Source of the DNA: Psammoneis japonica
Taxonomy: Eukaryota
NCBI GenBank assembly: GCA_008632985.1
Contig: QPGO01000027.1
Location: 248,001 to 312,000 of the forward strand
Length of the DNA stretch: 64,000 bases
Direction of reading: 5' to 3'
The stretch's first letter is position 1. Every line of letters begins with the position of its first letter. The position numbers and the translations under genes were made by a program. Below the pieces are notes generated by a model. That model worked only from the letters and a program-made list of their open reading frames with translations, ran no database searches and was not told the DNA's origin. This document shows positions 4,528-64,000 of this stretch, one piece after another.

Positions 4528-4767
4528 GCAGAGAGTCTACTCTAGAGAGAGAAGCTACTACTAGAGTAGAGAGTAGATAGAAGTAACCTTTTAGCTCTTG
4601 AGTCTTTCTGGAGAGTAGCTCTAGTAGCTACTCTAGTCTACTCTAGAGCAGAGAGGGCTATCGTCGCTAATGCTGGAACTTCCTAAACACTAAAAACTAA
4701 AACTGTTATACATGCAGATGCCTCGTCATACGCAAAGTGGTATATGGAGGAACCAACCACAAGCATT

Positions 4768-7700
4768 TCAGCGAACCTCCCGCTGTCGTGCGAGAGAGAA
4801 CATGGTGCCAAGCGCAAGCACCAAAAAGAATGCCAGCAGCACTCCGATGTTGCCACTAACTGAAGGCGGGTTATCAAATGCATAAATCTCGTTTACAAGG
4901 TCCTCATGCACTGTACCCCGAAAGAAACTCAGCGCAAGACCCTGCAACGTGTACTTGCAAGGGCTCACCCACTGTAACCAACTGATAAAGCTTTCCATGG
5001 ATGGGAACGGGACAAAGCCGCCCGATAAAGCGAGGCTCACAGTCACCACACCCGATCCCATTAAGAATGCCAAGTCCTGCGAAGGGAGAATGATTGAATG
5101 GAAGAGAACCAAGGCACTTCCGGTCAGTCCGCTCGTTATCAGAACGGCAAGATAAGTGAAGAACGATTCCCACTTCTCCATTACAGGGCTCCACAGGTTG
5201 CACATGTTGACAATAATAATGGTTTCGATTGTCGCCGCAATGATAATCACCCATGTTTCCAGAATGATTTGTGAAAGGCAGTAAATCCAAGGTGAATACA
5301 AACCAAGCGCACTTTCCGCCAGGTAAAACTTCTTGTCGTGGACAAACACCGGGATCATCGCAAAGGGCAACAGGTACGAAACCAGTATGATAAAAGTCAT
5401 GGCCCCTACAATGGCGTTGACCTCTGCACCGAGGTTCACACCACCGTCAATATTGCCAACATTCCAGAACAGCAGGCCGTCCACCAAAGAGCATGCACCG
5501 TAAAGGACAATCCTACAGGCAAAGTTTGCAAGATTGCGGACGTAGTGGTTTGTGAGATTGCGCTTAACCACGAAGCGGAATTTCCACCAAGCACCTGGAG
5601 GTTTCGTAACATCATGGTCCATGTCCTTGATAGTTGAGACGAGGTCCTTGGACATGTCTCGCGTTAATGACGACCTGGCTTCGCCTGAAAGATCAGCGGC
5701 GCGAGCCACAATGTCAGACGGTAAATCATACCAATCTGGCAACTGTGCATGAAATACATTCTGGTAAAGAACTTCCAAGCGCAACATACAGTCAGAAAAG
5801 ACTGTTGCGCCTTTGTCAAGGAGTACGAGACGGTCAAACTCGCGGAAAAGAGCACCACTGGGTTGATGAATCACTACCATTGCAGCCACACTCCTTGAAA
5901 TACAAAGTCTCTTCAGAAGGCGAGTCACAGACAAAGCATTCTCGGAGTCCAATCCACTGTGAACAAAAAAGCGCAAGTTCATTCAATGTAACAATATCCA
6001 GGTGCAATGAGACCACAGAACCAACTGCACATACCTTGTGATTTCGTCAAGAAATAATACCCGCGGCTTGAGGGCAAGAGCGCAAGCCACAGCGAGGCGC
6101 TTCCGCTCACCACCAGACATACCGCGAATCGTAAGACCGCCTGCGAGCTCGCCTCCGATTGGACGCTGGCACGTCTTCCAACTGAAGTTTAAGGAACCAC
6201 ACGGCAAACATCAGAACACGCGTTTCGGTGTTGTCGTCCATTACGAAATAAACTTTCAACGTCTTACCTCAACCCGACCTCTTCGAGCACAGTTCGAACG
6301 CGACTCATGCGCACAGCATCACCGCGAGGGTCCTTGCCCTGTTTCAGATTCGCCGCGAACGCGACAGCTTCTTCTGGAGTTTGTGTCGGGAAGAACGCTT
6401 CGTGCTGTGGCACATATGCGGCAACAGAATTAAGAATGCTGCACGCGTTCCTTTTCTGTGCCTGCCTAGCACAATATTCATTGCCAAGAACTGAAATCCT
6501 ACCATCAAGCCTCCCAAGAGCCTTTCGTCCCGACAAAACGTCGAGAAGGGTACTTTTACCAGAACCACTGCCTCCCATAATCGCTGTCAACTCTCCCGGT
6601 CGTAGCTGGCCGTACGAGTCGTCGAGGCTAGTAACATCGGCATCCGACGCACTCTTTCCGCGATAGGAGCAGGAAACTCTCGACCACGACAGTAGTGGTG
6701 TTAGCGCCATCGTATCTTCTTCGTCTTCGGTATGTTGCATTGGAAAACTCTCTTCTTTCGAAGATCCCATTATGATGTCCCCACTTCCAACCCACGATGA
6801 CTTCGATCCCCGCCTTGGCGCATCAGGAGTGTCTTCAGTGTTCTTCCTCTGAAGAAGTGTCATTGTACAAACAATAGCACTGAATAGAAATGACACAGTA
6901 AGCAAAACGATCGAGAATATCAGAGGGAACACCTCCAAAGCGTTCTCGGCATATTGGTCCGCGTACTCCTCTAGAAACTGGTCCGACATAAACTCTGCAA
7001 GCATATAGACAGATGAAAGTAAGCCAGCGGACAGTGGGAAACGTCGAAGAACGGACGAGTCAACTACGCGAACACCAGTCAAGCCTCCCATCAGCTTCAA
7101 ATCGCCATCAACAACACTGCCAACTGCACAGCCACCCACAAAGTGCCAGTTGGTGTTTGAGGAGGCCGACAGCCATTCTTGCATTGTCAAGTTTCCCGGA
7201 CCTATTTCTTTCATCCCAAAGTCCGGTGGAAAACTGTTGACTACCTCTCGCATGGATTCGACGCAGTCTGACGCCATGAGAAAGTCTCGAGGATCTTCCA
7301 GAAAGTTGGTGTGGACCTCCGGCTGAGCAAAAGCGTCCTCCACATTCGAGATACTAATGTTTCCGGTACTAACCGAGTTCAATTCACAAATAGCTGCAAA
7401 GGTTGGCCGGTCTCTCGCTACGGTCCCCGCAAAAGAGGACGTTTGATATCCCAAGAGACCCGCTTTGCCTAAAGTACAGCTCAGAGCAATACCGTATGGG
7501 CCACCTTCACCGGTTTCAAACTGCCGCTGTGCTTCATCTGTTAGAAGCGTGGAGTTATTCGCCCAGTCCATAGGCCGTCCTTGATATTCACCCAACGCGC
7601 CAACAAGAAGTCTTGCTCTGGTGTCCGCGCCAACAGGAAGATCTGCAAGAATCGTGGCGACGCCCTTCTCCTTCAGCAATTCTGAAGGTCCAATTCCCGA

Positions 7701-8619
7701 CAACTGCAGTAATTTGGGCGACCCGTAGGGTCCTGCTGACAGAATGATTTCCTCCTTTGCTGAGATCCTCATTGGTTTCTCGAGATCACCAACAGAGGAC
7801 ACCACAAACTCGACTGGACCCTTCATGCGATTCAAATAGTCTTGTGACGGTTGCGTCCTGGATAACAGAGAGTGAATTCTTGCAGGTGCCTTGGAGGGCC
7901 GGTTTCAAGTACACTTCATCAGCACTAAATCGACGTCCATTTTCGTTGCCAAACAAGAAATTCAGCTCAACCGTGTTCCTGCTCACCCCTCCTGGAACCA
8001 GTTTCTCTGTATTCTCCTCAAAACCATTAGCTAAAAATGCATTGATCGCATCCTTTGTGTAGTTTTGTTGCACACCTTCTGCTGGCTGTGTAACAACCAA
8101 AGTTTTACTGACGCGCTCAAAGACTCGGTTTGCGACCGGGGTGACGAGTCCATTAATGCCCCATTGCTCGGCCGTACCATCGAGTGGGAGTGTGTACTGA
8201 AACGAAATGGTACTCGCCCCACCCAAGGTGGCAGCATCATACATTGGTACTTTTCGACCTAATCGACCAGTTTCGGTATCAAACATGTTTTCATTTGGTT
8301 GAGATACGATGGTTTTCCAGATGCCTTGTTGAGCGGGACTCGGTTTACTAAGGTACAAGAGCTCGTTCTGTCTAAAATTGTTTGCAGGGAATTCTTGATC
8401 GGCAGTACGAGGAGCGCCACGTTCCAGCATAACAATCTTTGCTTTCGGAAGATCTTGACACAATCTGGCTGCTAAAACACAGCCAGCTGAACCTCCTCCC
8501 ACAATTACAAAATCTGCTGATGTCGGAAGATCGTCCTTTCCTGCAACTAGCATGGCTGCTTCAGTCAATTGATTGGTCCAGAGGGTGGGAAAGCTGAGTA
8601 GCAGAGGCAGTAGTAGCAT
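4768..8619 (-). CDS. Fusion of a secreted GMC oxidoreductase, a TM helix and an ABCG half-transporter (NBD-TMD); one apparent frameshift near 7790-7805
   Basis: Signal peptide; FVIVGGGSAGCVLAARL (FAD binding), EIILSAGPYGSPKLLQLSGIGP, WHFVGGC, GVRVVDSS (GMC); hydrophobic helix; Walker A GGSGSGKST, signature MSGGERKR, Walker B LFLDE, IHQP, multi-TM ABC2 membrane domain; introns 6182-6267 and 5957-6034. The GMC C-terminus and NBD lie in one ORF (6264..7835). Confidence 0.85.
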
Positions 8620-9093
8620 GGTGATGCAGCAAGGGAAATTTACTCTCAGCGGCGACGAGATAACCGGCTTATCTTCAAAATGTCGAAAGGTTGTTCTCTT
8701 TTCTCTACCGGTATATCTTAAGGCAACCTGACAGTTAAAACTTATCCCGCCGCAAAAGCAACACTCGATAGACACTCGCCTACAACAAACGACAACCGGC
8801 GTAAAGTTACCCCTTGATTGATAGACAGCACACGCACAACTTGACTGAACATAGGGCCCTAGATATCAAACATCAGAGATAGAAAACCCAAAAAACCGAG
8901 GAGCAGAAAAATGAGAAGGCTTCACTTGTTGTAATCTCTATGTATGAAGGTTTTAATAACTTGTTGTGTTCGCTTTAGCTGCATCTCTAGAGAGGGCCTA
9001 CTCTGCTCTACAGTACCGTATGTACTGTACTGTACACAAATTCTTAAGTGTAGTATCTTTCCGTTGAAAGATCCTCACCTCTTGCGGCAAGCC

Positions 9094-9821
9094 ATGGGAA
9101 TCTTCCGTCGTAAGGTTACCGCCGTCGGATTGCTGGCTTGTAACATACTCAGTTGTGCACAAGGCTTGGCAGAAGTGGCCATGGTTGATGTTCAGAGGCT
9201 AGAAAGGAAGGTTGAGGACCTCTTCCAGGAGGTCAGCTCGTTGCCGATCCGCATGTCTCGCAAGAACGGCAACATTGAAGTGCGTTCCAAGTTTGACGGC
9301 AGCTGCATGGTTTCGGTAGCAGAAGCAAAGGAGATTAATCAACATCCACGTCACTTTCGAAAGTTTCTTGAAGAGTTTGCTGAAGCGTTCCCAAAGGTCA
9401 ACCCCATGGCCCAAAACGTTGTACCTCTCGAAGGAAATAAGGACCGTGAAGCGTAAAGAGCGTCTTGAACTTTCCGTTTCCTCTGACAAACCGAATCATG
9501 GTTCATTGGAAGTATCTGAAACTTGATCGTTCGCCAGATGAGCACATGTTGATTATTTCTGAAGAGGGCAACGAAGACGTCTTGGCCAAGCACTTGACAG
9601 AGGAAGACAAGAAAAGGTATGTGTTGGCTCGTACATTTCTCTGCGTTTACTGGATCAAACCAGTCCTGAAGAATGGGAAAGTCATGGGATCAAACATACG
9701 GTATGCTTTTAGTGGAGATACGGGTGGAAGTATCCCTGTTTGGATTCAAAATGCCGTGGGTCCAAAGACGGCTTATGACTCGGTGAACGGCCTAGTTGAC
9801 TACGTTAAGAAAGGCGCGTGA
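9094..9821 (+). CDS. START-domain (lipid-binding) protein, frameshift near 9450
   Basis: FPFPLTNR, SGDTGGSIPVWIQN are START-type motifs; adding one base at GAAGCGTAAAG restores EGVKSVLNFPFP and joins the two ORFs. Confidence 0.7.
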
Positions 9822-9922
9822 CCTTCAACCAGCGAAGTTCATGAAAGCGTCGCAATACATATAGAAATACGGTAGTTTCAAATAAGGTAGCATCGTACTT
9901 TTCGGAGCCGATCTTCGAAAAG

Positions 9923-10731
9923 TTATTCCGTGACATTTCGTACCCGAGCAAATGATGCAATGACAATCCGATGGTCACTACCGCCGCAAGATCCAATCCT
10001 GGCCCCTCCAGAGTCAAGCAACTGCAAATCCTTGGAATGAAAAATGTAATCATATTCAAAGCTCAACAAGGGTACACCGCATAAGCCAAAACTCCAAGTA
10101 GACGTATTCCACCCAATCTTGGGAACATTCATAAAGCTCATCCTCTCGAGGTAACGTATGCAGGCGCCGTTGGGACGCTCATTGAAGTCACCAACAATGA
10201 TAGTAGGTACATCTGTCAGGAGTTGTCTGAAGAATGTTTTGATTTCATCCAAGCGCTTCGCCTTGACGTCTTTCGAGAAGTATCCTCCGACCCAATCAGC
10301 ATGTACGCCGTACCAGTTGCGTTCGTGCGTGAAGAGAACCGGTGCCCGAAGATGGACTACCAAAATTTGGAGTATATCGTCATTGTTTGAGTAGTTTTCA
10401 TGCAAATCACGGTTGTTTGGCAATTTCAACATGATGCGTCCAGCTGGGTACCACCCACGCTCGGTTTCTTTTATTGTTTGAACGCAGTCGATTGGAAACT
10501 TTGAAAGACACGCAAATCCAGCCCATGGATTGTAAGACTCATTATGAAAATAACTAAAAGGATATTTTTCAAGATATCGTGCTGTTGTTTCAAGTAGGTT
10601 TCCCAATCACGGTTGATTTCTTGTACATCTGCGCCACACGTTGCAATCACCCGGGAAGTTGCTTCGTTCGACGGAGACTTGCAAATGTGGCTTACATTGT
10701 AAGTTGCGACGACAATATGATTTTCCGTCAT
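9923..10731 (-). CDS. Endonuclease/exonuclease/phosphatase (EEP) family protein, frameshifted
   Basis: VATYNV, DVQE, LSKFPI, VHL, IIVGDFN, YDYIF, GSDH motifs split over two frames; the shift plausibly lies at an A-run near 10565-10570. Confidence 0.75.
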
Positions 10732-11736
10732 GCTTGTGCTTTGGAAAAGGATACGCGTTAATGAAACGCCGTACTGCAGAGTGACAGCCTCCGGCTCCGC
10801 TCAGGTCATCATGGTCCGATTTTCGCTTTCTCCGATCGCTTTGCAGCACATGCGCCTATCCTGCAAGCGTCGGCCGTTTCTCGTCTGTACCTTGAGTCCA
10901 GTTGAACGGGATTTCGTTCAAATCGAGCTCGGTGAAGCGATCTGCTCTACGTGTGCTATGGTACAAACCTGTAGTGGCATGGTGTTAACATATATATAAT
11001 GAATAAAAGGGTACAAAAATGTGGACATTTTCAAAAAGAAATGCTGCACATAAAATGTGCAAGAAACAACATTTGAGTGAACGTCGAAAAACGAAAAACC
11101 TGCGCGAGCGGACGCAAAATCTGAAACAAGTCATCGGAGCTCGAGTCGATGTTGGCCAGTTGCGTAGAATGTAGAATGTACGCTGAACATGCACCAGGGA
11201 AAACCCGGATGTGTGGCCAACTTTGGCCAAAGCTGGACACAAGGGTGCGAGACCCGTCTGGCCGGCATCGAAGATCCAGGAAGTTCAAAGAGCGCGCAAT
11301 CCGATGAGATCCAGCATTCATCTAAGACCCGTTCCATTGCCCTTGCGAACCCCTGCGAAACCTGTGAAACGACATTTTTCAAAAATGTTTGAAATGACGT
11401 CACTTTCTGAATGTTGACGTCTCTGATGCTGTCACTGATCTCGCATTCGTAACGGCGAGAGCTGCGAGGTGCGCGGGGTTCGCTTCCACCGTGCTGGGAT
11501 GAAGCACCAGCATCAGTGCTGTTGACACAGAAAAAGCAAATCAACCACGCTCATGCGAACGTGCAATGTCTTCGTTTGATCAAGATGCACCAGATCTCAA
11601 TGCATTGGTGGCAATGAGACCAAGGAAAAAGAAAAAGAGGATGGCTCCATTGGCAGAACTCATTGCTGTGTTGTGTCTGCACGCTGACGCCATTGAACGA
11701 TGAGAATCATCATGCGAGCGTTCTCATGCGAGATGC

Positions 11737-12968
11737 ATGCTTCGGGACTTGCTTGATTCACGCTGTGCCTCCTTGCTCACCGGAGAATTTGCAACTGTTT
11801 TCAGAATGCCTCCACACGCCATGGAGTGCCTCCGAAACAAATTGCATCCGCACTTGAAGCCAAAGTTGTCGGATGCCAACACAGCCGGCCGACAGGATTG
11901 CGACCGGAGGCCACTTGCGGTCGATGAAAAGGTGCATCTCGGCTGCATGGGGTCTGGAGGTTGTTCTTTGGGTGGTCTCATTTTTGCTTTTGGCTTGGGT
12001 CACACGAGTGTGGAGGACACGTTGTTTGATTTTTTCAAAGCCATTGTTGAAGCCGGTGTTGGCACCACACATTTTCCCACGACAGAGCCAGAGCTGCGAC
12101 ACTTGGCAAATCAATTTTTACAAAACAAGAACAACCTTCCGGAATTGTGCGTTGGTCATGTGGGAGCAGGAGATGGACGTGCTGTGAGAATTCGCATGCC
12201 AGGCAGCGACGAATGCGAGAATCCAATGGCGCATGTCAATCGGAAGGGTTTTCCAGCCATCAGTGTTCAAGCGATTGCAGATGCAGTCTTAAAGTGTCGA
12301 GTGTTGGACGTCCATGCCACAGGAAATGCTCATGACAGGACAGCTTGGGAATTGTGCACCACAGCCACGAGATGGGAGAATGAAATGCGATCAAGCATCG
12401 AGGCACCGAGAGGCACTGCTGCATCTCTTTGGATGAGGCTTGTGGCTGTGGTGCAAATCGGGTTGGTCCATGGCCAGGCACTGGGCTTGCAGAGCGTGAG
12501 CCACACAAGGATGCCTTCAACTGTCATCTGAACAAAGGCCACCACAATTGCATTGAGCGCATGTGGGGCAATGTCCACCAGAAGTTTGGGATTTTTTGGC
12601 GTCCTTTGCTTTTTCCATTGCGCAGGTGTCCGGTGGTAATTCAATCTATTTTTCGTCTGCACAATTTCCTGAAAGACCTTGGTGTTGATGATGATGAATT
12701 GTGCGTTCCTTCAGTCAACAACGGACCGGGTCAGCATCGACAGGGTGAGCCATTCCTTTCCTCAGACGAGCCCATGGGGCACGACCACAACCTGTGTCCC
12801 ATGGACCAATGCTGGCTTGAAGACAGGGCCATCCCACGGGTGCGTCATGGGCAGTGTCCAATTCGGGAACAGATCACAGATTCATTGAGAACTGCCAACA
12901 TTGTTCGCCCACCTCGCAGTGGCGGCAGAAATGCAGTGTCGGCATTGATGGCATCGAATCACAACTAG
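11737..12968 (+). pseudogene. Harbinger (DDE_Tnp_4-type) transposase, frameshifted near 12430; true start probably further upstream
   Basis: FRM, GAGDG, NRKGFPAISVQAIAD, GNAHD, DEAC, FNCH, IERMWG, LHNF match the Harbinger/IS5 DDE core. Confidence 0.85.
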
Positions 12969-14545
12969 AGAACCGATCTGATGTGTGTGTGGAAATAACA
13001 GTGGAACCATTGGATGGCTCTTGTTCTGCAGATAATGCAATTGCCATTGATTGTCCCACAATTCCCAGTTCTTCTAAAGCAACGGCTAGTCAAGCACGTA
13101 GAGTGGGGTTTTGGCGCGCAACTACGGGTTATTTGGATAATTGAACACAGATTCGGATTTGCTTGTGGTGTGGAAATAAAAGCAACACCATTAGAAAGCT
13201 CTCGTCCTGTAGATGATTTTATTGCCATTTTTCATTGCCTGAGCTCAAGCACTTCTAAAGCAACAGCTAGTCAAGCAAAACGCAATTGGATTTTGGCGCC
13301 AAAAACAGGGGTTGTTTGGTTGTCAGAATGCCGATTGTTGATGATTCGGATCTGCTTGGGGTGTGGAAATGAAAGCAGTGCTGTTAGAAAGCTCTTGTTC
13401 TTGTTCTGTGGACAATGTGGTTACCGTTGATTGTCCCATAAATCCGAGTTCTTCTAAAGCAACTGCCAGCCAAGCAAGCGCAGTGGGATTGTGGCGCGCA
13501 ACTCTACGGGTTGCCGATTGTTGATCATTCGGATCCGCTTGGGGCATGGAAATGAAAGTAGTGCCATTAGAAAGCCCTCGTTCTTGTTCTGTAGATAATG
13601 CAATTGCCATTGATTGTCCCATAATTCCCAGTTGTTCTAAAGCAACGGCTAGCCAAGCAAACGCATTGCGCGAGAGGCGTTTTGACGGGATTTTGGCGCG
13701 CAACCGGGGTCGGCAGGACATCTGAATGCCGATTCGGATCTGCTCAGGGTATGGAAATAAAATTGACATCATTGGAAAGCTCTTAATCTATGGATGATGT
13801 TGTTGCCATTGATTGCACCACAATTCTAATTTCTCACAAAGCAACGCCCACTTGAGCAAAACGCATTGGGATTTTTGAGCGCAACTGCGCGATCGGCAAG
13901 ATGTCTGAATGCCGATTCGGTTCTGCTAGAGGCATCCAAATAAAAGCACCATCATTAGAAAGCTCTCGCTCTTTAGATGATGTCATTGTTGTGGATTGTG
14001 TCAACTCCAATTTCTTCTAAAGCAACACCTGCTCAAGCAAAACGCAATGTGACCCGGGTGCGCAAGTGCCGGTCGGCAGGATGTCTGAATGCAGATTCGG
14101 ATCTGCTTGGGGCATGGAAGCAGATCTAACATCATCAGAAAGCTCTTGATCTACAGATGATGTTTTTGCCTTTGATTGTGCCACAATTCCAATTTCTTAT
14201 AAAGCAACACCTGCTTGAGCAAAATGAACTGGGATTTTGGCGCGCATCCGGGGTCGGCGGGACATCTGAATGCCGATTCGGATCTGCTCAGGGCATGGAA
14301 ATAAAATTAACATCATTGGAAAGCTCTCATTCTACAGATGATGTCATTGCCATTGACTGTGCCACAATTCCTGTTTTTTCTAAAGCAACGCCCACTTGAG
14401 CAAGACGCACTGAGATTTTGGCACGCACCTGCGGGATCGTTGCGATGCATAAATGCCGATTCGGATCTGCTAGCTGGAGGGTCATAGAAGTAAAAGTTGC
14501 ACCATAAGAAAGCTGTGATTCTGTAAATGATGTCAAATGCATTAC
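12965..14545. repeat. Tandem array of about 8-9 diverged 180-200-bp units inside the Harbinger
   Basis: Anchor motif CTAAAGCAAC (or close variants) at about 13074, 13255, 13454, 13637, 13837, 14017, 14199, 14380. Confidence 0.9.
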
Positions 14546-46281: not shown

Positions 46282-46938
46282 TGAACCCATAATGCAGAAA
46301 TGCTATTCGTTTTTTAAAACCCACTGTTGTTACGTACCATCACTACACTAATTATATTCTGAATGGTACTGCTTCCGGAGTGCCGAGTATTCAGAGTGAG
46401 CAATTGTACTACCGTCGACTCTTAGCTACTCTACCAGCTAGAGAGTAGGCCTCTACTAGAGCTAGCTTCTAGAGTACAGAGTAGCTACTCTCTACTCTAG
46501 ACTCTAGAGCCCTCTACTCTAGTAGAGCTACTCTCCACTCTACTCTACTACTAGTTAGAGTTGAGGGAGGGTCACACTTTCCAGCTTTGTACCGGTAGCC
46601 CTACTCTCTACAGTACTACAGTAGTAGCTAGCTAGAGTAGAGCAGACTGTTCTACAGCACAGCACAGCGCAGTCACTTGAGCGGGGTATCTATAGGCACC
46701 AGAGGGGGGGTGATATTTTGAGATAGTGACGTGTGCTTAGTTGAAGGGGGCGGTGCACTTCAAGTGCACTGGCATAGTTTCCGGTGCACTGCGGTGCACT
46801 GATAAGTAATTTTTGACTTTCTTTCGTCCCTAAGTAGCTTTGTCCAAAGGGTCATTCGAAAACTCGAGGGGCGCGCCAAAAGAAAATCATCAAAAACTCG
46901 CATTTCTCGTTCGCGAGAGAGAAAACACACACTCGACG

Positions 46939-49047
46939 ATGACATCTTACGTTATTTTGAAGGGCGGCGGATTCAAAATAACGCAGCAAACCCGCTCTCT
47001 TGGTGAGTCGAGCTTGAATAAGACACTGAAGAAGTACAAGCTTGACACAACGTCACCAAAACTTGCAATTACAGGAAAGAACAAAAAGACCGGCGAAGTA
47101 GGCACTGACGCTGTTGCGACTAGTTCTATTGCACGGTATGAACCCATATGGAGGCTTTTTCGTGACTTCTGCTACCTGATTGATGATTCTGAAAGTGCCA
47201 TGCTGCCGGCACGTGACTTGTGTCCATCAGATCCTTTTCCTTCGAATTTGGATACAGCAATCCAGTTTACTCAGTTCAGGACAAAACAGAAAGGCGAACC
47301 ACTACTTCACAACCGCACGAACGCTCCTGTAAAGGACCGGTATGGAAACCCTATCACCTGCATTGGTGATTGGAAAGGTCATTCTTCCATTGGGCTCTTC
47401 CGCACTGCCATGAGCAAGCTTCACAAGCACTACGAAACGACCAATGGCGAATACCGAGAAATGTGCACTGCTTGTCATGAGATTGGCGAGGAGGAAGCCC
47501 GAAAGGGCACTGGATGCCGCAAACACCCTGGTGATCCCCATTTCTGGCGTCGTGGAAATACCACCAAACATGAAGATTTCAAGGCTGCAATTGACCAATG
47601 GCAAGACTACGCATCAAACTACTACGAAGCTAGAAGTGCTTTTGCATTCTTGCCGGGCGAGGTGCGGGCTATTCGAGACTACTGTTTGTCACATAATGAC
47701 AAGTATCATCTAATGCTTTGGACTATCATTATTGTTGGTACAAAGTTATTTCTACGCTGTGAAGAAGTTTTGGAGATGACGGTTGAAAAGTTTGTCACCG
47801 AGTACTTCCAAGTGTCGGAAAATGCCGTCAAGGGTCTCTGCACCAAAATCCGTGGCAAGCGTGACGAGAAGGATCTTCATTTCATGATTTGGGACGATGA
47901 AGAATGTCCTGAATTCTCAGGAACTATTGCTATTCTCCTTTGGATGCATTATTCCGGCATCAAGTCGGGCAAGTTGTTTCCCACTAGAGACGAGTTGGAG
48001 CTCAACAAGGAACATCACGACGAAAATTTTCCATACGACTCGCTCCTGGATTTTTTCAAGTTTGCTTGCGAAACCATTCTGGGAAGAGACATTGATAAGA
48101 TGTCAACTGAAATCATTGGAACACACATTCTTCGAAGGACTGGCTTTGCGTTTGCTGAATGGGGCTCTACGCATGACGGAGGGCGGCTGGGTGAGATGGC
48201 CGAAGCGAACATATTGCTGAGCGCTCGTCACAAGAATATATCAAGTACCGCGACTTACCTTTCTGACAGTGGTACACTGAAGGCTCTAGTTGATAGGGAA
48301 AAGGACAAGGATGCTCACCGTGTTGGTAAATGGGAGCCCATCCATATGAAGCATCTTTCTTCATTTGCATCCGTCATGGTAGACTCTGCCAGGTACCGCA
48401 AGCCTCTGCCAGAACTTGCTGATTAGTACGTGACGGAACTGCTTGGTGTGCAGCAGAGCAACTTATTGACTGTCAAGCAGCTGTTCACAAAAGCTACATC
48501 ATACACCCCGGACTTGTCTGATGAAGAAGAAATGAAGCAGTTCTTGATTCGTGAGCTTGGATCTAGCAAGGCAGAGGTGGTGATGCGAATGCACGACAAG
48601 TCGGCTGCAGAAAGAGTGCGTGCTGCACAGTCTACAACTTTTGAAGTACTCACCAATACCAACAGTGCAAGGGAGAAGCGAGCTGCTACTGACCCAGCTC
48701 AAGATGAAAGGAACACCAAAAAAACCAAGTCCACAGGTGACACCGTCGTACAGTTTGATCGTGACTACCAATCTGAATTTAAATCCACCAAGGACGCTGC
48801 TACCAAGGTTCAGGTATTTGTGGATGCATGCCAGGACGTGAAAGATCAGGTGCGCGCCGGTAAGTCCTTGGAAGATCCTATCAAAAGCTTTGCATATCGA
48901 GCTGCTAGGGTCGTACAGTGCCTTGACGACTGCTACGACGGCAAGGTTGATTGTTTTTTGCAAGAGAATTCTGGGCCCCTGTCAAAGTTCAGGACGTGCA
49001 ACAAGGGTGTCAATCACAAGCCTACATTCGATATGGCAAAACTGTAA
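46939..49047 (+). mobile_element. Tyrosine recombinase (Crypton-like), interrupted by one in-frame TAG at 48424-48426
   Basis: Catalytic set in canonical order: LFLR (R), GKRD (K), THILRR (HxxR), ARH (H), TATY (Y); ORF 48430..49047 is in the same frame, giving about 700 aa on read-through. Confidence 0.85.
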
Positions 49048-49515: not shown

Positions 49516-50828
49516 ATGAAAGTCACAAACGGAACATTGCTCACTCTTCTTGCGTTCTCTTGCTTTGTCCACCCGATTGATACGCAAAGGGTTGGCGTGA
49601 AAAAGAGGTGCCGCCTCAGGAGGCCTAGCCGTACAAGAGTGCCACCATCACGCCGGAGGGTGTCGAGTATTGCGACACCTGACGATATTTCTGAGGAGAG
49701 TGAAATTGCTGGATATTTCTTCACTGAGGCTTACAAGCAACAGGAAAACAATTGTCAGAATGTGATTTTCGACCACAGAGATGCGAGTGGCATCATTCGT
49801 CAAGGGCAAGCCCCAACCCCAGCGCTGCAAAAGCTGGCAGATACCTACACTCCGGTAGTGAGAGAGAATTCTATCACTATTGGGATAGACTCAAGTATTA
49901 CCTCGAAAAGCTCCACCGAGAAGATTTGGATGTGGTAAGTAATACGTACGACATTATGCACTGTACTTGAGCAGCACAATGAGCTTTGCATTTGTAATTT
50001 TCGCCTCATGATTCATCATTCCATGTGTTTGAACAAAAGGTTTGGAACGAAAAAGAGGATCGGGTTGCTCGGGTTTAACACGGATACTCCATTTCCGGCC
50101 AACACAGTCATGAAGTGGGACTCAACTACGCCAAGTGGTACCTAGAAACTGTCAAGTCAGATGATTGGGATTTGATTAGTCTCGTTAATCCGAGCACGGA
50201 TGGAATCAAGATCAGAAGCATTGAAATTCGACACAGTGGAGTGAAGATTCTGGACTGGCAGAATGCTGGTGTTTGGCTGGACAATTCAAAGCACCAGAGT
50301 CACACCCATCTCGGGCTTTCGGCAAAGATCCTCGAAACCAAGCTCAACACCCCCGAAGTCAAGCCGTACAACTGGATTACCCAAATCCACTGGGCAGCAA
50401 GAGAATTGGGTAAGACTGATGGTAAGAATTATCAAGCCTTGGGGACCAATGCGTGGTGTAGTGAATTTGCATCGTGGACCCTGCGCAAAGCGCTATGGCA
50501 AACTCCACACAATTGGGCACCGAATGGGATTGGGGATGCGCAAGAGATGGAGAACTATTTCAGTAGCGTTGGCCGCTATGTTCCACATTCCTCGCTCGTT
50601 GGGGAAGGGTTTCGCCGTCTCAAAGCAGGCGACTACATTCGGTTCCAATGGCCAAGTGGCAGCCAGCATAGTGCAATCTTTATCTCCTACAAGGACGAGC
50701 CTACTGCGCTTAACCCCCCAACGAACAGCACTCGCATCAATACAATCGAAGGCAACACAGGCTCGAGAGTCGCGGTCAGAACCTCACGCACTCTTGGTCA
50801 GGTGCGTTCAGCAGGAAATACTCAGTAA
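49516..50828 (+). CDS. Secreted CHAP-domain (Cys/His amidohydrolase) protein; intron 49935-50039; apparent frameshift near 50140
   Basis: Signal peptide MKVTNGTLLTLLAFSCFVHP; AWCSEFASW, KAGDYIRF, QHSAIF, TIEGNT match bacterial/phage CHAP amidases. Confidence 0.75.
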
Positions 50829-51903: not shown

Positions 51904-52411
51904 ATCATGGACCTCTCCTATGGTCAGAGTAGCACGTACCTGAAGACGCCTCCTCCTGCGGCGATTGCCACCTCTAGATTATACTCGTCGATAATGCAGA
52001 ATTATACGGCGACAAAACTAGATTTTGAAAGTTTCTTTGCTCAAAAAAAAAATCGGCGTACATATCGCATTGCTTCAAAATTCCCCAAATAGTTTCCCAT
52101 CCCTTCCCGCCAGACTGTCCAGCTCCATAAGCTCCTTTGGGTACTCCTTGCAGAGGCGGTCAACTTCTTTGAGGAGGATCCATCCTTCCTTGGCGTGTGA
52201 AAATAGCTTTCGATTGTTAACGAAGGTATCCTCGGGAAACGCGTCACAATGGAGATACTTGCCGGCACGGCTAAAGCACTCGCAGGACTCTGCCTCCGTC
52301 AGTCCATGTACACGCTCTAAATCCCGCTGCCATTCATCTCCTTGGCGCATGGTTTCCAGCAATAGTTCGTGTTTCTTGTTCTTCTGAAAAATCTGTGGGG
52401 CAAGTTGTTCA

Positions 52412-52690
52412 TCAAGGTCGGACTTGGACAAAATTGAAGCGTTGCTCATAGTGGAGACTTCGAAATGCCCCTGCTCCGAACTGTGCTTCAATTGCGTTTG
52501 CGAATGCTTGGATTTGTGCGTGGAAGACAGGGCCGGTGACATCTTCGCGCCGCCAGCACGAATGTTGGTATTTTTGACAGCCTCGTTGTACGAGATAGGC
52601 GTCAATGTATTCGTAGACTCTTTGGCGACGGGAGCCGTTGACATTTCCATTGTGGATGTGGAGGTCGTATTGGAAGCAGAAATCGGGCAT
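52412..52690 (-). CDS. VapD/Cas2-like small ferredoxin-fold nuclease (92 aa)
   Basis: FCFQYDL...RRQRVYEYIDAYLVQRGCQKYQHSCW fits the VapD/Cas2 pattern hhh(F/Y)D(L/I)...Y..h...L...G....QxSx(aromatic); size matches. Confidence 0.65.
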   Translation of the reverse strand: MPDFCFQYDLHIHNGNVNGSRRQRVYEYIDAYLVQRGCQKYQHSCWRREDVTGPVFHAQIQAFANAIEAQFGAGAFRSLHYEQRFNFVQVRP

Positions 52691-52716
52691 TCAAGGGGAA
52701 CGATATGATAAGGTTA

Positions 52717-52930
52717 GGCCTTGGGGGGCGTCTTTGGAAGTGAGATCGTCGAAGGCGGTCTGATCGCCAGTGCGTTTGGGGTTTTCCCAGTACAATTTGT
52801 ACGCAAAAAAAAACACGTAGGATCTGTCCAGAGGTCCCAAATACCCAATCGCACTGATTGACAGACTGTTTTAGTACAAATTCTACGTAACTTTCTTCGA
52901 CAGTCTCACTTCCGAAGACGTCCCCCAGCC
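52717..52930. mobile_element. MITE (Tourist/Harbinger-like), about 214 bp
   Basis: GGCCTTGGGGGGCGTCTTTGGAAGTGAGATCGTCGAAG pairs with CTTCGACAGTCTCACTTCCGAAGACGTCCCCCAGCC; flanked by TTA and TAG. Confidence 0.7.
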
Positions 52931-53279
52931 TAGAGATGATGCAAACTGACGGAGCAGTGCAGTGCGCGTGACAGCACCTTGCTTTTGTACACTCTCCATC
53001 GTGAGTCCATGCGTCGACCGTTGTCGTGTGCTCTGCGCACACCCAAGTCTCCTCATTGACCTTTTTTCTTTTCAAGTTTTTTGACTGAAAACGGACAGAC
53101 TGTACGACAACTCGAAATCGCATCGCTCGAGTTGAGTTGTTTTTCGCCAGTGGCATTTTCACTCCAACACCCCATTTCACACTTCACACTACGAGCGTGG
53201 TGGGTTCTCGCCATGAAGACACCAATGTTCTAACTGTTCGAAATCCACCCATTTGTTCACAAACAATGAGTGTCATTGA

Positions 53280-54260
53280 TCTCACTTCAGATCCGAATCG
53301 GCATTAAAATGTCGCATCGATCCAAAAGTTGTGCGCCAAAATCACAGTGCGTTTAGCTCAAGCAGGCGTTTCTTTAGAAGAACTTGGAATTGTGACACAT
53401 TAAATGACAACAACATCATCTACAGAACAAGAGCTTTCCAATGATGTTGTTTTTATTTCCACGCACCTGACAGATCCGAGTCATCATCCAGATGTCCTGT
53501 CGACGCCGCAGTTGCGCGCCAAAGTCATGTTCCGTTTTGCTCAAGCAGGCGTTGCTTTAGAAGCACTTGAAATTATGACACGATAAATGACAATAACATC
53601 ATCTACAGAACGAGAGCTTTCCAATGATGTCACTTTTATTTCCATGCCCCTGACAGATCCGAGTCATCATCCAGGTGTTCTGCCGACCCCGCAGTTGCGC
53701 ACCAAAATCCCATTGCGTTTTGCTCAAGTGGGCGTTGCTTTAGAAGTGCTTTAAATTATGACACAATAAATGACAATGACATCATCTACAGAATGAGAGC
53801 TTTCTGATGATGTTGCTTTCATTTCCATGTCCTCAACAGATCCGAATCATCATCCAGATGTCCTGCCGACCCCGCAGTTGCGCGCCAAAATCCCAGTGCA
53901 TTTTGCTCAAGTGGGCGTTGCTTTAGAAGAACTTGGAATTATGACACAACAAATGGCAGCAACATCATCTGCAGAACGAGAGCTGTCCAATGATGTCACT
54001 TTTATTTCCATGCCCCTGACAGATCCGAATCTTCATTCACACATCCTGCCGACCCCGCACTTGCGCGCCAAAATCCCAGTGCGTTTCGCTCAAGCAGGCG
54101 TTGCTTTAGAAGAACTTGGAATTGTGACACAACAAATGGCAGCAACATCATCTACAGAATGAGAGCCATCTGATGATGTTGCTTTCATTTCCACACCCGC
54201 AACAGATCCGAATCTTCATTCACATGTCCCACCGACCCCGCACTTGCGCGCCAAAATCCA
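53280..54260. repeat. 183-bp tandem array, about 5.3 units; same family as 12965-14545, inverted
   Basis: Unit anchors at 53404, 53587, 53770, 53953, 54136 (exact 183-bp period). Confidence 0.95.
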
Positions 54261-54674: not shown

Positions 54675-56630
54675 TCATTCCTGGGACCCAAGAGCAATTA
54701 GAAATGGTTGCCGGTTAGGTGTGGGGCGCTCAACACCCCAATGGTGACACTGCGTCCACACAGCAACGCCTGGATGATGGCAGAGACCGCACCCTGCTTG
54801 GCACGCTGCACAGCAACAGCGCATCATACGACTGAACTTCCCAAGATTGTGCCCATCCTGTTCGAACGTCGTCTTCTTAACCATGAGTTGAAGCAGAACC
54901 ATGCATTCTTGAAACAGGGGCTTCTCACCCACACCCGCAAGCTTTCGAGTTTTTTCTTCATGTTGTTGAGATGCGCGGCATTTTGAAATGATGCACACTG
55001 ATTGTTTGTTAGGACCCCATGCAACAGCATGGCACAGCAGCTCTTGCAACTCCTGAACTCGCTTCAGCGCTTCAGACAAATTCTTCTGGGTTTTCTGGTT
55101 CCCGATTGCCTGAAACTCTTCATGCACGAAGTCTGGATCTACATCCGGGGCCTTGGATGCTGTGGCATCGAAGTTGTCTGTAAACGATCCGTTGTCACAG
55201 AGTTTGTGGGTGTCCGCAAAAAAATCATTCAGCAATTTTTCCACAGTGACGCGACGACAGCACGAGTGACCGAAGTGTCTCCCCAGCGCTCTTCTTGTGA
55301 CCAGCATCAATCTTTGAAAAAATCCCATTGGTGTGCTTGTTTTGATCAAAGTGGGAAGTCGTTGTCAGACGCTGCTTTTCCATGCACATGCAGCGTCGCA
55401 GGCACGCAATCAATTCTTCCTTTTTCAACGCAGCACCGTCTTTTCCCGTCACATTTCCACTGCGTGCGATTGCCATGCCCATTAATTGTTGCTTGGTGCA
55501 TTCCTTAAGGTCACTCTTGCCTGTTGGCAGCCCCATGCCAACAATGTTGGAACGATCCTCCACGGAGTTGTGGCGCACATTGTGCGGTTGAAATTGGTCG
55601 AGCTTCATCTGATCGGCATTTGAGAACACAGCCACAGCTCGAGGATTCACTTTGCCTTTCATGTGATTCAACCGCTGTGCTGATGATTGTTCAACAATGC
55701 GCCCATCAGCTGTTGAACAAACACCCCCATTGGTGTCACAGCATGACCCACCTTTCGTGAACCAGTTTGTGACATGATGCACCGCCTGAGTGATGTCGTT
55801 CGCTGAATGTCGTTCCGCAGTGGCGGTGGCAGCACATTTCAAAAGTGTCTCAGCAAACTGCTCAGTCTCTAAATTGTCACAATCAGCAGCAGACAGGGAA
55901 TGGTCAAGTGCCTTGAGAAATGTTGCTTCCCCAATCCCCTTGATGCCGCTGCCGTTTTCTGTCACGTCACACCCCATCACCACCGCCCACCAATGCACCA
56001 CAATGATGCCAATTTTCTTTGTTGCCACATGCAGTGGGTGTTCAGTTGCAACCTCATCAGTTGATGTAGTTTCCATGTCAACAAAGCGACACTGCTCCGA
56101 ACCCCAACTGTCAACAAACAGAATCTCACCAGCGCCATGCCCAACGTGATCAGAGTCTCGGCACATTGTGATCGCCGATGCAACTTCTCGGCCTGCTTGC
56201 ATGTCAGCCTCTTGTGGAGCAACCACATGAGGCACGTGACAGCGATCGCAAATTTTGGCGCACATTGCAACAAACATTGATGGAATCCGTGGAGCAGTGT
56301 TCCCCGTCTCTTCACTGCACCGACGAGCATGTTCCGGCAGTTTCTCGATTGGCAGAACCCCATCAAAAATGAAAGTGATGTCCCATTGAAGAATGCAGTG
56401 CAAGAAGACAACTGTCTGGTGAAAATCTTGCAAGGATCGAGAGAAGTCTCCCTCAATGAATTGGTCTCTGTGACGGACAGCACAAACAAACACCAGCGTG
56501 CCGGCATCCAAGTGAACCGGAGTGCCTTTTCGTTGCAGTTGCGCAAATGATGAGAACCTTTTGATGTGTTTTCGTCTGTGAAACAGACATCAGGCAGGCA
56601 TTGTGCGCCATCAACATTGTCACAATCACA
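54675..56630 (-). pseudogene. Degenerate Exo1/XPG (FEN1-family) nuclease with SAP-like segment and SWIM zinc finger
   Basis: DAG, FIFDG, PHVVAPQEADMQ, DSD, GCD..GIKGIG (XPG-N/I and H3TH); TKQQLMGMAIARSG..KKEELI; CAACQAGCGLCHH then TISNCSWVP; frameshifted. Confidence 0.75.
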
Positions 56631-56807: not shown

Positions 56808-57200
56808 TGTGTGCCGTTGCATGCTGCATTGCCTGCACGTACGCAGGGCCCTGCTGCCAGGGCCGGCATTGTGACGGCTGAGTGGCGTGGCCACCGCAAC
56901 GGTGACGCGGATGACCGTCACATTTGATGTCTCATGCCATTTTTGGGGCTGCAGCGAGGTGCACGGACACTCTTTTTTTCCAATTTATCACCATAACAGC
57001 GCATCGCACAAACTCACTTGTTGTTTGACATGTTTTCCCCAGTGTGACTTTTTCATGTAGAATTCACGACAAATTGTCTTTGCACACAACTGAGTGCATT
57101 TTTAAACATGCCACGCCGGCAATCCCAATTTTTCAGAACTTTCGAGCTCTCCTGAAAAACCGTGCCACGCACCCGTCGTAGGGAATTTGTCAATTTTTTA
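56808..57200 (+). repeat. Direct repeat of about 390 bp, copy 1
   Basis: Aligns colinearly with 63606-64000 (GCCATTTTTGGGGCTGC, GGACACTCTTTTTTTCCAATT, AGCTCTCCTGAAAAACCGT, AGGGAATTTGTC). Confidence 0.9.
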
Positions 57201-63612: not shown

Positions 63613-64000
63613 CGTTGCCTGCCACATTGCCTGCACATGCGCAGAGCCATGCCACAGTGGGCTGGCATTGCAGCAGCAGAGCGGCACAGCCGCCACACTG
63701 GCGACATGGATGACCATCACATTTCATGTCTCACGCCATTTTTGGGGCTGCTGCGAGGTGCGCGGACACTCTTTTTTTCCAATTCATTGCCAAAACAGTG
63801 CATCACACAAACACACTCATTGTTCGACATGTTTTTTCCAATGTGATTGTTTTGTGCACAATTCATGACAAATTGTCTTTGTCGAGGAAAGCTGAGTGCA
63901 TTTTTCAACATGCCACGCTGGCAATCCCAGTTTTGCAGCATTTTCAAGCTCTCCTGAAAAACCGTTCCATGCACCCATCACAGGGAATTTGTCGATTTTT
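63606..64000 (+). repeat. Direct repeat of about 390 bp, copy 2 (runs off the window end)
   Basis: Aligns with 56808-57200. Confidence 0.9.

Follow-up and report, generated by a model that had tools for sequence, protein, structure and literature searches.

Does a eukaryotic nuclear genome encode a protein of the VapD type, and what might such a protein do there? The question is raised by a small open reading frame (ORF) of Psammoneis japonica, which lies in a stretch of 64,000 nucleotides (nt) of contig QPGO01000027.1 (assembly GCA_008632985.1, positions 248,001 to 312,000); this whole stretch is termed the window, and its positions are used throughout. Bacterial VapD proteins are the toxins of the VapXD, VapYD, and VapWD type II toxin-antitoxin systems and distant relatives of Cas2, and to our knowledge both VapD and Cas2 have been treated as prokaryotic proteins. 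A preliminary description made from the DNA letters had presented the ORF as a VapD/Cas2-like nuclease gene in a eukaryotic mobile region. We find that it represents a VapD-type family in a eukaryote, which has been missed by curated models and is linked, through an extended dual-coding overlap, to a helical partner of a novel kind. The most likely reading of this pair, although a tentative one, is a VapD-type toxin and a new antidote that would both be produced from one mRNA by leaky scanning.

Relatives of the 92-residue protein and their homology to VapD

The ORF was recovered intact at the following position:

52412..52690, minus strand: VapD-like ORF, 92 amino acids (aa; stop codon counted in the coordinates), with an intact frame, relatives, a fold, and a profile match

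Its start ATG is at 52690 and its stop TGA at 52414-52412, and the protein contains the motifs FCFQYDL, VYEYIDAYLVQRG, and QHSCW; the Asp of YDL, the pattern Y..I...L...G, and QHSCW, to which the preliminary description had drawn attention, are all in place. Judged by its relatives, this ORF is a real gene and not a chance frame, because all six candidates from a word-indexed search of 5.8 billion proteins match the protein (63-83% identity), and because an exhaustive hidden Markov model search of 1.84 billion cluster representatives yields 31 homologues conserving the frame at an expect value (E) of 1e-3 or lower, including 16 at E ≤ 1e-10 and three at E ≤ 1e-30. Five of the six word-search relatives are co-linear with the ORF from the Met through to the same stop; in the sixth, P0005, the alignment runs from residue 25 onward and the N-terminus is in another frame. 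The family amounts to 31 clusters at 50% identity. Alignment A2, used for the residue counts below, comprises the window protein and 30 relatives, with the omission of P0005, on account of its N-terminus, and of the partial matches P0017, P0023, P0027, and P0034.

Nearly all of these relatives were assembled from metagenomes or sequencing runs, an NCBI source being given for one, and a single member sequence is present on 43 contigs from four sources. Short-pattern scans derived from close relatives, which are blind to distant members, give no match among 185,579 prokaryote species, each represented by one genome, or in IMG/VR, and a tblastn search of the protein against 72,556 plasmids returns chance-level matches only (E ≥ 2). 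The same protein database holds six VapD-like proteins vs. 35 proteins from the frame that overlaps the gene; prokaryote-style gene callers seem to drop the 92-aa ORF often and to keep the longer overlapping frame. Since neither Pfam nor NCBIfam detects the family and gene callers seem often to drop its ORF, it has probably been overlooked so far. A full-text literature search gave no paper combining VapD and diatom. By title and the start of the abstract, papers on VapD, eukaryotes, and Cas2 include none about a eukaryotic VapD, and those on toxin-antitoxin, diatom, and nuclear genome include none on such a system; within the main text of the 2025 VapD census, the stem "eukaryot" occurs once, in the title of a reference (PMC11980593). 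With its catalytic-type residues intact, a conserved gene of the VapD type in a genome with introns would be a further case of a bacterial conflict gene put to new use by eukaryotes.

For profile comparison, we used two alignments, A5 with 18 full-length members of the family and A6 with 11 plasmid VapD proteins, whose genes come from annotated plasmids (Neisseria gonorrhoeae pJD1 and nine others). Hhalign aligns A5 with A6 over residues 4-63 with a probability of 95.3% and an E of 2.1e-8 (95.8% and 8e-9 in a second run), and A5 with the single VapD of pJD1 with 67% and 5e-5; the identity between the window protein and VapD is ~17%. None of the controls behaves in this way: A5 gives E of 0.29 with the reversed A6, 0.0088 at best with 50 column-shuffled versions of A6, and 0.27 with A4, the profile of the partner family described below, and the partner itself has no match to the VapD-like profile. 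The Cas2 of Escherichia coli, compared as a single sequence, gives 0.55 with A5 (probability 0.1%) and 0.28 with A6. A search of the PDB with the A2 profile returned two sequences, both of them Haemophilus influenzae VapD (E 0.36 and 0.40), in which the YDL Asp is placed on D7 and Y..I...L...G..R.Q.S is in register; phmmer with the single protein gave no match in the PDB. Because hhalign reaches an E of 2e-8 and all controls fail, the profiles, together with the structural model described next, identify the family as a true but distant VapD homologue with a ferredoxin-like fold.

The AlphaFold2 (AF2) model, built from seven sequences, has a predicted ferredoxin-like order of beta-alpha-beta-beta-alpha-(alpha)-beta, with strands at residues 3-8, 39-41, 45-48, and 85-90 and helices at 18-35, 53-71, and 75-81. 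The top chain in VIA-align is Campylobacter jejuni VapD (9kan_A; Z 8.8, root mean square deviation 2.8 over 82 residues), which is the only row exceeding the range reachable by a common arrangement; it is followed by Cas2 chains and H. influenzae VapD at Z 7.9, with many Cas2 chains at Z 7-7.9. The best Foldseek rows are nearly all Cas2 and VapD chains, and the three best clusters in the ESM Atlas are of the VapD type (0.89, 0.85, and 0.85; two named "Endoribonuclease VapD family protein" and one "putative virulence protein"), where scores below 0.9 serve as a lead only. The double assignment to VapD and Cas2 in the preliminary description is narrowed by these comparisons. Its VapD half stands, with the homology found by hhalign, the ferredoxin-like fold, the Asp of the first strand, and the Q-x-S motif; as to its Cas2 half, the profile has no match to E. 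coli Cas2, and the likeness is specific to VapD. At the level of sequence profiles, the family is closer to VapD than to E. coli Cas2. Cas2 belongs to the same fold class and provides some of the best Foldseek rows; in contrast to a Cas2 locus, the ORFs scanned in the window include no Cas1 family match, and the Q-x-S of the window protein is of the VapD type.

The residues that matter in VapD are found in the expected places. In the hhalign register, Y8-D9, Y26, G37, Q42, S44, and W46 of the window protein fall on F6-D7, Y25, G36, Q41, S43, and Y45 of VapD, respectively, and all these VapD positions are invariant or nearly so in A6. D9 is an Asp in 26 of the 28 A2 rows having a residue there; Q42 is kept in 27/30 rows, S44 in 28/30, Y26 in 29/31, and W46 in 27/31. 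The catalytic-type residues D9, Q42, and S44 are maintained even in relatives of 30% identity. According to the mutant data cited here from PMC3351183, the RNase activity of HP0315 is most reduced by D7A, L13A, S43A, and D76A. According to PMC11980593, D7N makes another VapD non-toxic, and catalysis in the C. jejuni VapD structure is ascribed to an Asp (D11) and a Ser acting as a pair.

These residues also bear on the question of whether the likeness to VapD might be convergent or generic, the product being some small ferredoxin-like protein and the neighboring ORF merely close-packed and unrelated. Ferredoxin-like folds are very common, the structural Z scores stay below 9, the Foldseek E-values are above 0.05, and no curated family matches, all of which would suit such an origin. 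We nevertheless consider it very improbable in view of the profile-profile E with clean controls, the register of D, Y, G, and Q-x-S-x-aromatic on invariant VapD columns, the agreement of four separate methods (the VIA-align fold, the PDB profile search, the Atlas look-alikes, and hhalign) on VapD over other ferredoxin folds, and the recurrence among relatives of the overlap and co-occurrence of both ORFs.

The overlapping partner and the proposed toxin-antidote reading

Downstream of the VapD-like gene, and partly within it, lies a second conserved ORF that was absent from the preliminary description. The features that concern this ORF and the presumed mRNA are as follows:

52075..52449, minus strand: core of the partner ORF, 124 aa from the ATG of MSNAS, sharing 38 nt, in frame +1, with the 3' end of the VapD-like ORF; supported by relatives, selection, and an AF2 model
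52075..52650, minus strand: long form of the partner frame, 191 aa from the second ATG of the presumed mRNA; suggested by ATG positions and contexts and by N-terminal extensions in relatives
52691..52721, minus strand: leader between a miniature inverted-repeat transposable element (MITE) and the VapD-like ATG, short and containing no ATG

The ATG of the long form, at 52650, is situated 40 nt after the VapD-like ATG, and the frame is open from stop to stop back to 52713; the first 67 residues of the long form are Ser/Thr-rich and are coded within the VapD-like gene. Among 40 candidates, 35 partner relatives were found at E ≤ 0.01. Alignment A3 contains 24 of them together with P0013 and P0018, and the short or partial sequences P0038, P0040, P0047, P0052, P0053, P0054, P0056, P0058, P0060, P0062, and P0069 were left out. 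The AF2 model of the partner is confident (predicted local distance difference test, pLDDT, 84.3) and all-helical, with helices at residues 9-15, 25-46, 52-64, 73-76, 80-102, and 104-116. This predicted protein has no Pfam family, no relative among PDB sequences (best E 0.64), no Foldseek match (E ≥ 1.5), no VIA-align match above the noise level of that tool for helical models (best Z 6.1), and no look-alike in the ESM Atlas (scores ≤ 0.78); no DNA-binding domain was recognized in the family, PDB, fold, and Atlas comparisons.

The linkage of the two genes is conserved in the sequences available for comparison. One DNA relative, L001 from a microbial-mat metagenome, was found with the A1 or A4 patterns. 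Its similarity to the window is limited exactly to 52692-52075, that is, to both ORFs only (68% over 631 columns in blastn; also seen in tblastx), and in L001, too, the VapD-like gene is succeeded by the partner ORF, the two overlapping as they do in the window. Moreover, P0013 and P0018 are single called proteins that join a VapD-like part to a partner part. The comparison with L001 also points to purifying selection on both ORFs, which is strong on the partner: outside the overlap, the proportions of nonsynonymous (pN) and synonymous (pS) differences in the partner are 0.17 and 0.79, the latter being saturated, and codons 1-52 of the VapD-like gene have a pN of 0.157 and a pS of 0.397 (ratio 0.31).

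The long form of the partner is suggested by the N-termini of its relatives. The column of the MSNAS Met is occupied by Met in only five of the 24 partner-family proteins, by Thr in 18, and by Ile in one; the 19 proteins without Met all extend 8-87 residues upstream, into the VapD-like gene, and at least 47 residues precede this column in 13 of the 24. Four sequences, from the window, P0039, P0042, and P0049, open with the motif M-[AE]-x-S-[TA], whose Met corresponds to the window ATG at +40, and P0046 has the same motif after six additional N-terminal residues. Counted from the VapD-like start, the ATGs of the window are at 0 (frame 0), at 40, 46, 148, and 241 (frame +1), and at 278 (frame +2), so that all four further ATGs within the VapD-like ORF are in frame +1. 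The context of the VapD-like ATG is weak (T at -3, C at +4), and that of the second ATG is strong (A at -3, G at +4). L001 keeps the weak first context and the ATGs at +40 and +46; there, the -3 position is C and a degenerate additional ATG occurs at +20. As read from the letters, this ATG layout would allow scanning ribosomes to make both proteins from one mRNA.

We propose the following scheme, mainly because of the conserved overlapping partner ORF. Ribosomes starting at the first AUG, with its weak context, would make the VapD-like protein, and those passing on to the next AUG, 40 nt further in frame +1 and in a strong context, would make the partner, whose N-terminal extension would be disordered. 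Cleavage of nucleic acid by the VapD-like protein would depend on D9 and S44, probably with the protein acting as a dimer, and the helical partner would bind and restrain this protein. A toxin-antidote pair of this kind in a nuclear genome would be a compact and testable candidate and, if true, a eukaryotic counterpart of type II toxin-antitoxin systems. The preliminary description had proposed an addiction or antiviral toxin, a role that the VapD-like gene may have. The fuller version of the scheme, in which a captured bacterial VapD and a newly evolved helical antidote expressed by leaky scanning would form a nuclear element that is either selfish, through drive or addiction, or an abortive-infection defence, is a possible one that we hold to be rather doubtful.

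The window pair resembles known systems in some respects and departs from them in others. Like the VapD family (H. influenzae VapXD, Helicobacter pylori HP0315, C. jejuni VapWD, and N. gonorrhoeae pJD1), the window protein is of about 92 aa with the order beta-alpha-beta-beta-alpha-beta; it has the Asp at the end of beta1, the Tyr of alpha1, the Gly before beta2, and Q-x-S-x-aromatic between beta2 and beta3, all on invariant columns, and its gene forms a pair with another small gene of the same orientation. Unlike that family, it shows the low identity given above, lacks a Pfam or NCBIfam match, and belongs to a eukaryotic host with introns, and the C-terminal Asp of D-I-R is apparently replaced by A, I, or V. 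VapX and VapY are described as SH3-like barrels and VapW as VapD-like, an inactive VapD, in the sections of PMC11980593 on these antitoxins; in contrast to VapXD, VapYD, and VapWD, the partner in the window is helical, is encoded downstream, and overlaps by 38 to more than 200 nt. With bacterial type II modules in general, the pair shares two small adjacent co-oriented genes for a nuclease-type and a second protein, a tentatively predicted binding, and a toxin-like gene that is often decayed in relatives in which the partner persists. It differs from them in its nuclear eukaryotic setting, where there is no operon logic, in the first position of the toxin-like gene, and in an overlap that is long and dual-coding vs. 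one of few bases. The wtf poison-antidote elements of fission yeast and the overlapping ORFs of viruses that use leaky scanning provide antagonistic or paired products from one compact locus by alternative starts. The mechanism proposed here is similar to theirs; in contrast, they have no sequence relation to the window pair, whose products are in different frames and whose toxin-like part is of bacterial ancestry.

A number of observations weigh against the toxin-antidote reading. Neither Pfam (PF09827 included) nor NCBIfam places the VapD-like protein in a family, even at E ≤ 1, and Pfam gives no VapD/Cas2 match for any of the 31 aligned members; its AF2 model is only moderate (pLDDT 68.6), and the Foldseek E-values, at 0.06-0.5, are weak. 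The active site may be incomplete, as read from the alignment, because the invariant Asp of the VapD D-I-R motif (D74 in pJD1, D76 in HP0315) falls on A75 in an extended, low-confidence hhalign alignment, by which R76 and E81 of VapD fall on R77 and E82 of the window protein; across the family, the column of A75 holds A 11 times, I 10 times, V nine times, and T once. The partner resembles no known antitoxin and is located downstream of the VapD-like gene, whereas the putative antitoxin gene is upstream in the fetched plasmid vapD loci. In favor of binding, the computed support is weak: the predicted complex of the VapD-like protein and the partner has a median interface score (ipSAE, interaction prediction score from aligned errors) of 0.59 vs. 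0.07 for the best control, with contacts agreeing by at least 81% between runs and a partner pLDDT of at least 72; the ipSAE mark is attained by 51 of 78 solved complexes and two of 108 mismatched pairs, and at ipSAE ≤ 0.60, where only five of the 78 solved complexes pass along with all four passing mismatches (of 180), a score is wrong in most cases, except where the interaction was already probable on other grounds. We count this score as a mild plus only for the suggested binding. Dual coding is supported by a lower synonymous divergence in the overlap, which affects ~12 of 32 sites in overlapped VapD-like codons vs. ~52 of 66 in non-overlapped partner codons (Fisher p 1e-4), in a test made on one sequence pair in which the VapD-like copy of L001 is broken. 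When synonymous codons are resampled for the VapD-like amino acids, frame +1 remains open by chance in 18% of cases, and in 1-30% for 15 relatives; with a single-sequence p of 0.18, the open frame was rejected as sole proof of dual coding.

The main rival of the toxin-antidote reading is a domesticated pair, in which a non-toxic nuclease or nucleic-acid-binding protein and a helical cofactor or regulatory subunit would serve, for instance, in RNA processing or antiviral defence as an ordinary single-copy host gene. A single-copy module with flank-like depth in the source sample, the purifying selection on both ORFs, a diversity of 31 clusters at 50% identity that fits long residence, and the apparent absence of the second acidic residue of VapD are all points in its favor. 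The pattern of decay among relatives, however, suits a dispensable toxin better than it does a core enzyme. In L001, the VapD-like gene is broken by an internal deletion and a frameshift and carries Y8C, in comparison with the intact, near-identical protein P0002, and the partner ORF is whole. In P0037, P0057, and P0066, a VapD-like N-terminus gives way to the partner frame, and P0051 has an apparent internal deletion. The loss of the VapD-like gene with retention of the partner is expected of a toxin-antidote pair; it could also result from simple decay or from misassembly of contigs of low coverage. Nor is any synteny conserved beyond the module between the window and L001, and overall we regard domestication as unlikely, though deserving of serious weight.

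The same frameshifts, which occur in many relatives, could instead mark a relic in decay and no longer expressed, left by horizontal transfer or by the integration of a virus- or plasmid-like element. Such an origin would be in line with the lack of matches in the prokaryote set and IMG/VR, within the sensitivity of a pattern scan, with the almost exclusive derivation of the relatives from metagenome and run assemblies, with the MITE inserted upstream, and with a Rep ORF of the CRESS (circular Rep-encoding single-stranded) DNA virus type that lies 2.3 kb away in L001. A relic is quite improbable, however, given that both ORFs of the window are intact, that pN of the partner is far below pS and the VapD-like ratio is as low as reported above, and that the catalytic-type residues persist across relatives of 30% identity. 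The toxin-antidote reading keeps its place ahead of both rivals.

The MITE and the genomic setting

Is the pair itself part of a mobile element? Just upstream of the leader, we delineated the following feature:

52722..52927, no strand assigned: MITE-like element, 206 bp, with 33-nt terminal inverted repeats, multi-copy depth, loose ends, and GCCT flanks

Its arms, 52722-52754 and 52895-52927, are 33 nt long and 88% complementary, and the element is directly flanked by GCCT at 52718-52721 and at 52928-52931. In the source sample, contigs accumulate over precisely 52722-52927, with a summed depth of 5,700-14,000 vs. ~53 in the flanks (100- to 260-fold), and loose ends with unlike flanks occur in run X1 at 52722 (12 contigs), 52927 (14), and 52928 (7). 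Because of this pile-up and of the loose ends at the arm ends, the element is a genuine multi-copy MITE-like element. Its distance to the VapD-like ATG had been given as 26 bp; this figure applies with a boundary at 52717, and with the boundary at 52722 the distance is 31 nt. The position of the MITE is presumed to be the promoter or leader region of the gene pair.

We obtained no support for the view that a mobile element carries the gene, that the flanks form part of such an element, or that the surrounding ORFs are mobile-element genes. The pair is single-copy in the source sample at ≥85% identity, with depths of 53 and 50 vs. 57-61 in the flanks, and it is found on single contigs with 0-1 differences. 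Owing to this flank-like depth, the single contigs, and the few differences, the pair is neither contamination nor a repeat at that identity. The ORFs of window positions 24-64 kb have no transposase, integrase, or viral family match, and the DNA relative L001 shares nothing with the window beyond the two ORFs. The G+C content of the pair is 0.50 vs. 0.48 for the window. The eukaryotic character of the region, in turn, holds: the window is eukaryotic nuclear DNA, because it contains an ABCG-type transporter gene split by GT..AG introns, two short ones reading GTAAGA...TTCAG and GTATGT...CACAG. A PP1-type phosphatase N-terminal domain is also encoded in the window, and Rfam and tRNA scans of it found nothing.

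Two neighboring ORFs were considered by eye and rejected. A 528-aa ORF at 46840-48426 (plus strand) recalls a tyrosine recombinase by its H-x-x-R and R-H...Y spacing, and a 428-aa ORF at 55225-56511 (minus strand) appears XPG/FEN-like by FDG...EAD; both are without a Pfam or PDB match and were not used.

Several further observations concern L001 and the surroundings of the pair. In L001, the Rep ORF occupies 4608-5219 on the minus strand (Pfam Viral_Rep, E 1e-6), and the ORFs next to it include a P-loop-like piece, apparently split by frameshifts or introns; this region of L001 may be an endogenous viral element. Within the window, a 237-aa ORF at 50115-50828 (plus strand), 1.3 kb from the module, has a weak match to CHAP, a peptidoglycan amidase-type domain (E 0.02, below the Pfam threshold); its origin, too, may be bacterial. 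The segment 53288-54319 consists of a 183-nt unit repeated five times in tandem, in which the copies match the first at 68-83% identity; its plus strand codes for repeated units of ~61 aa (ORFs 53404-54162), and many copies of the unit are present in the source sample, where the summed depth reaches ~3,700 and many joints occur. A direct repeat of ~385 nt with 81-88% identity is present at 56815-57198 and 63613-64000, spaced by 6.8 kb and reaching the window end; it could be long terminal repeat-like or a segmental duplication, and the ORFs between its copies have no Pfam family. At 11737-12531 (plus strand), 40 kb away from the VapD-like gene, an ORF has a weak match to DDE_Tnp_4, a PIF/Harbinger-type transposase family (E 8e-4, below threshold). 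Finally, 4768-8775 on the minus strand holds a GMC oxidoreductase gene followed in the same orientation by the ABCG-type half-transporter gene with the two GT..AG introns, and one ORF called with translation table 11 spans the end of the former into the start of the latter.

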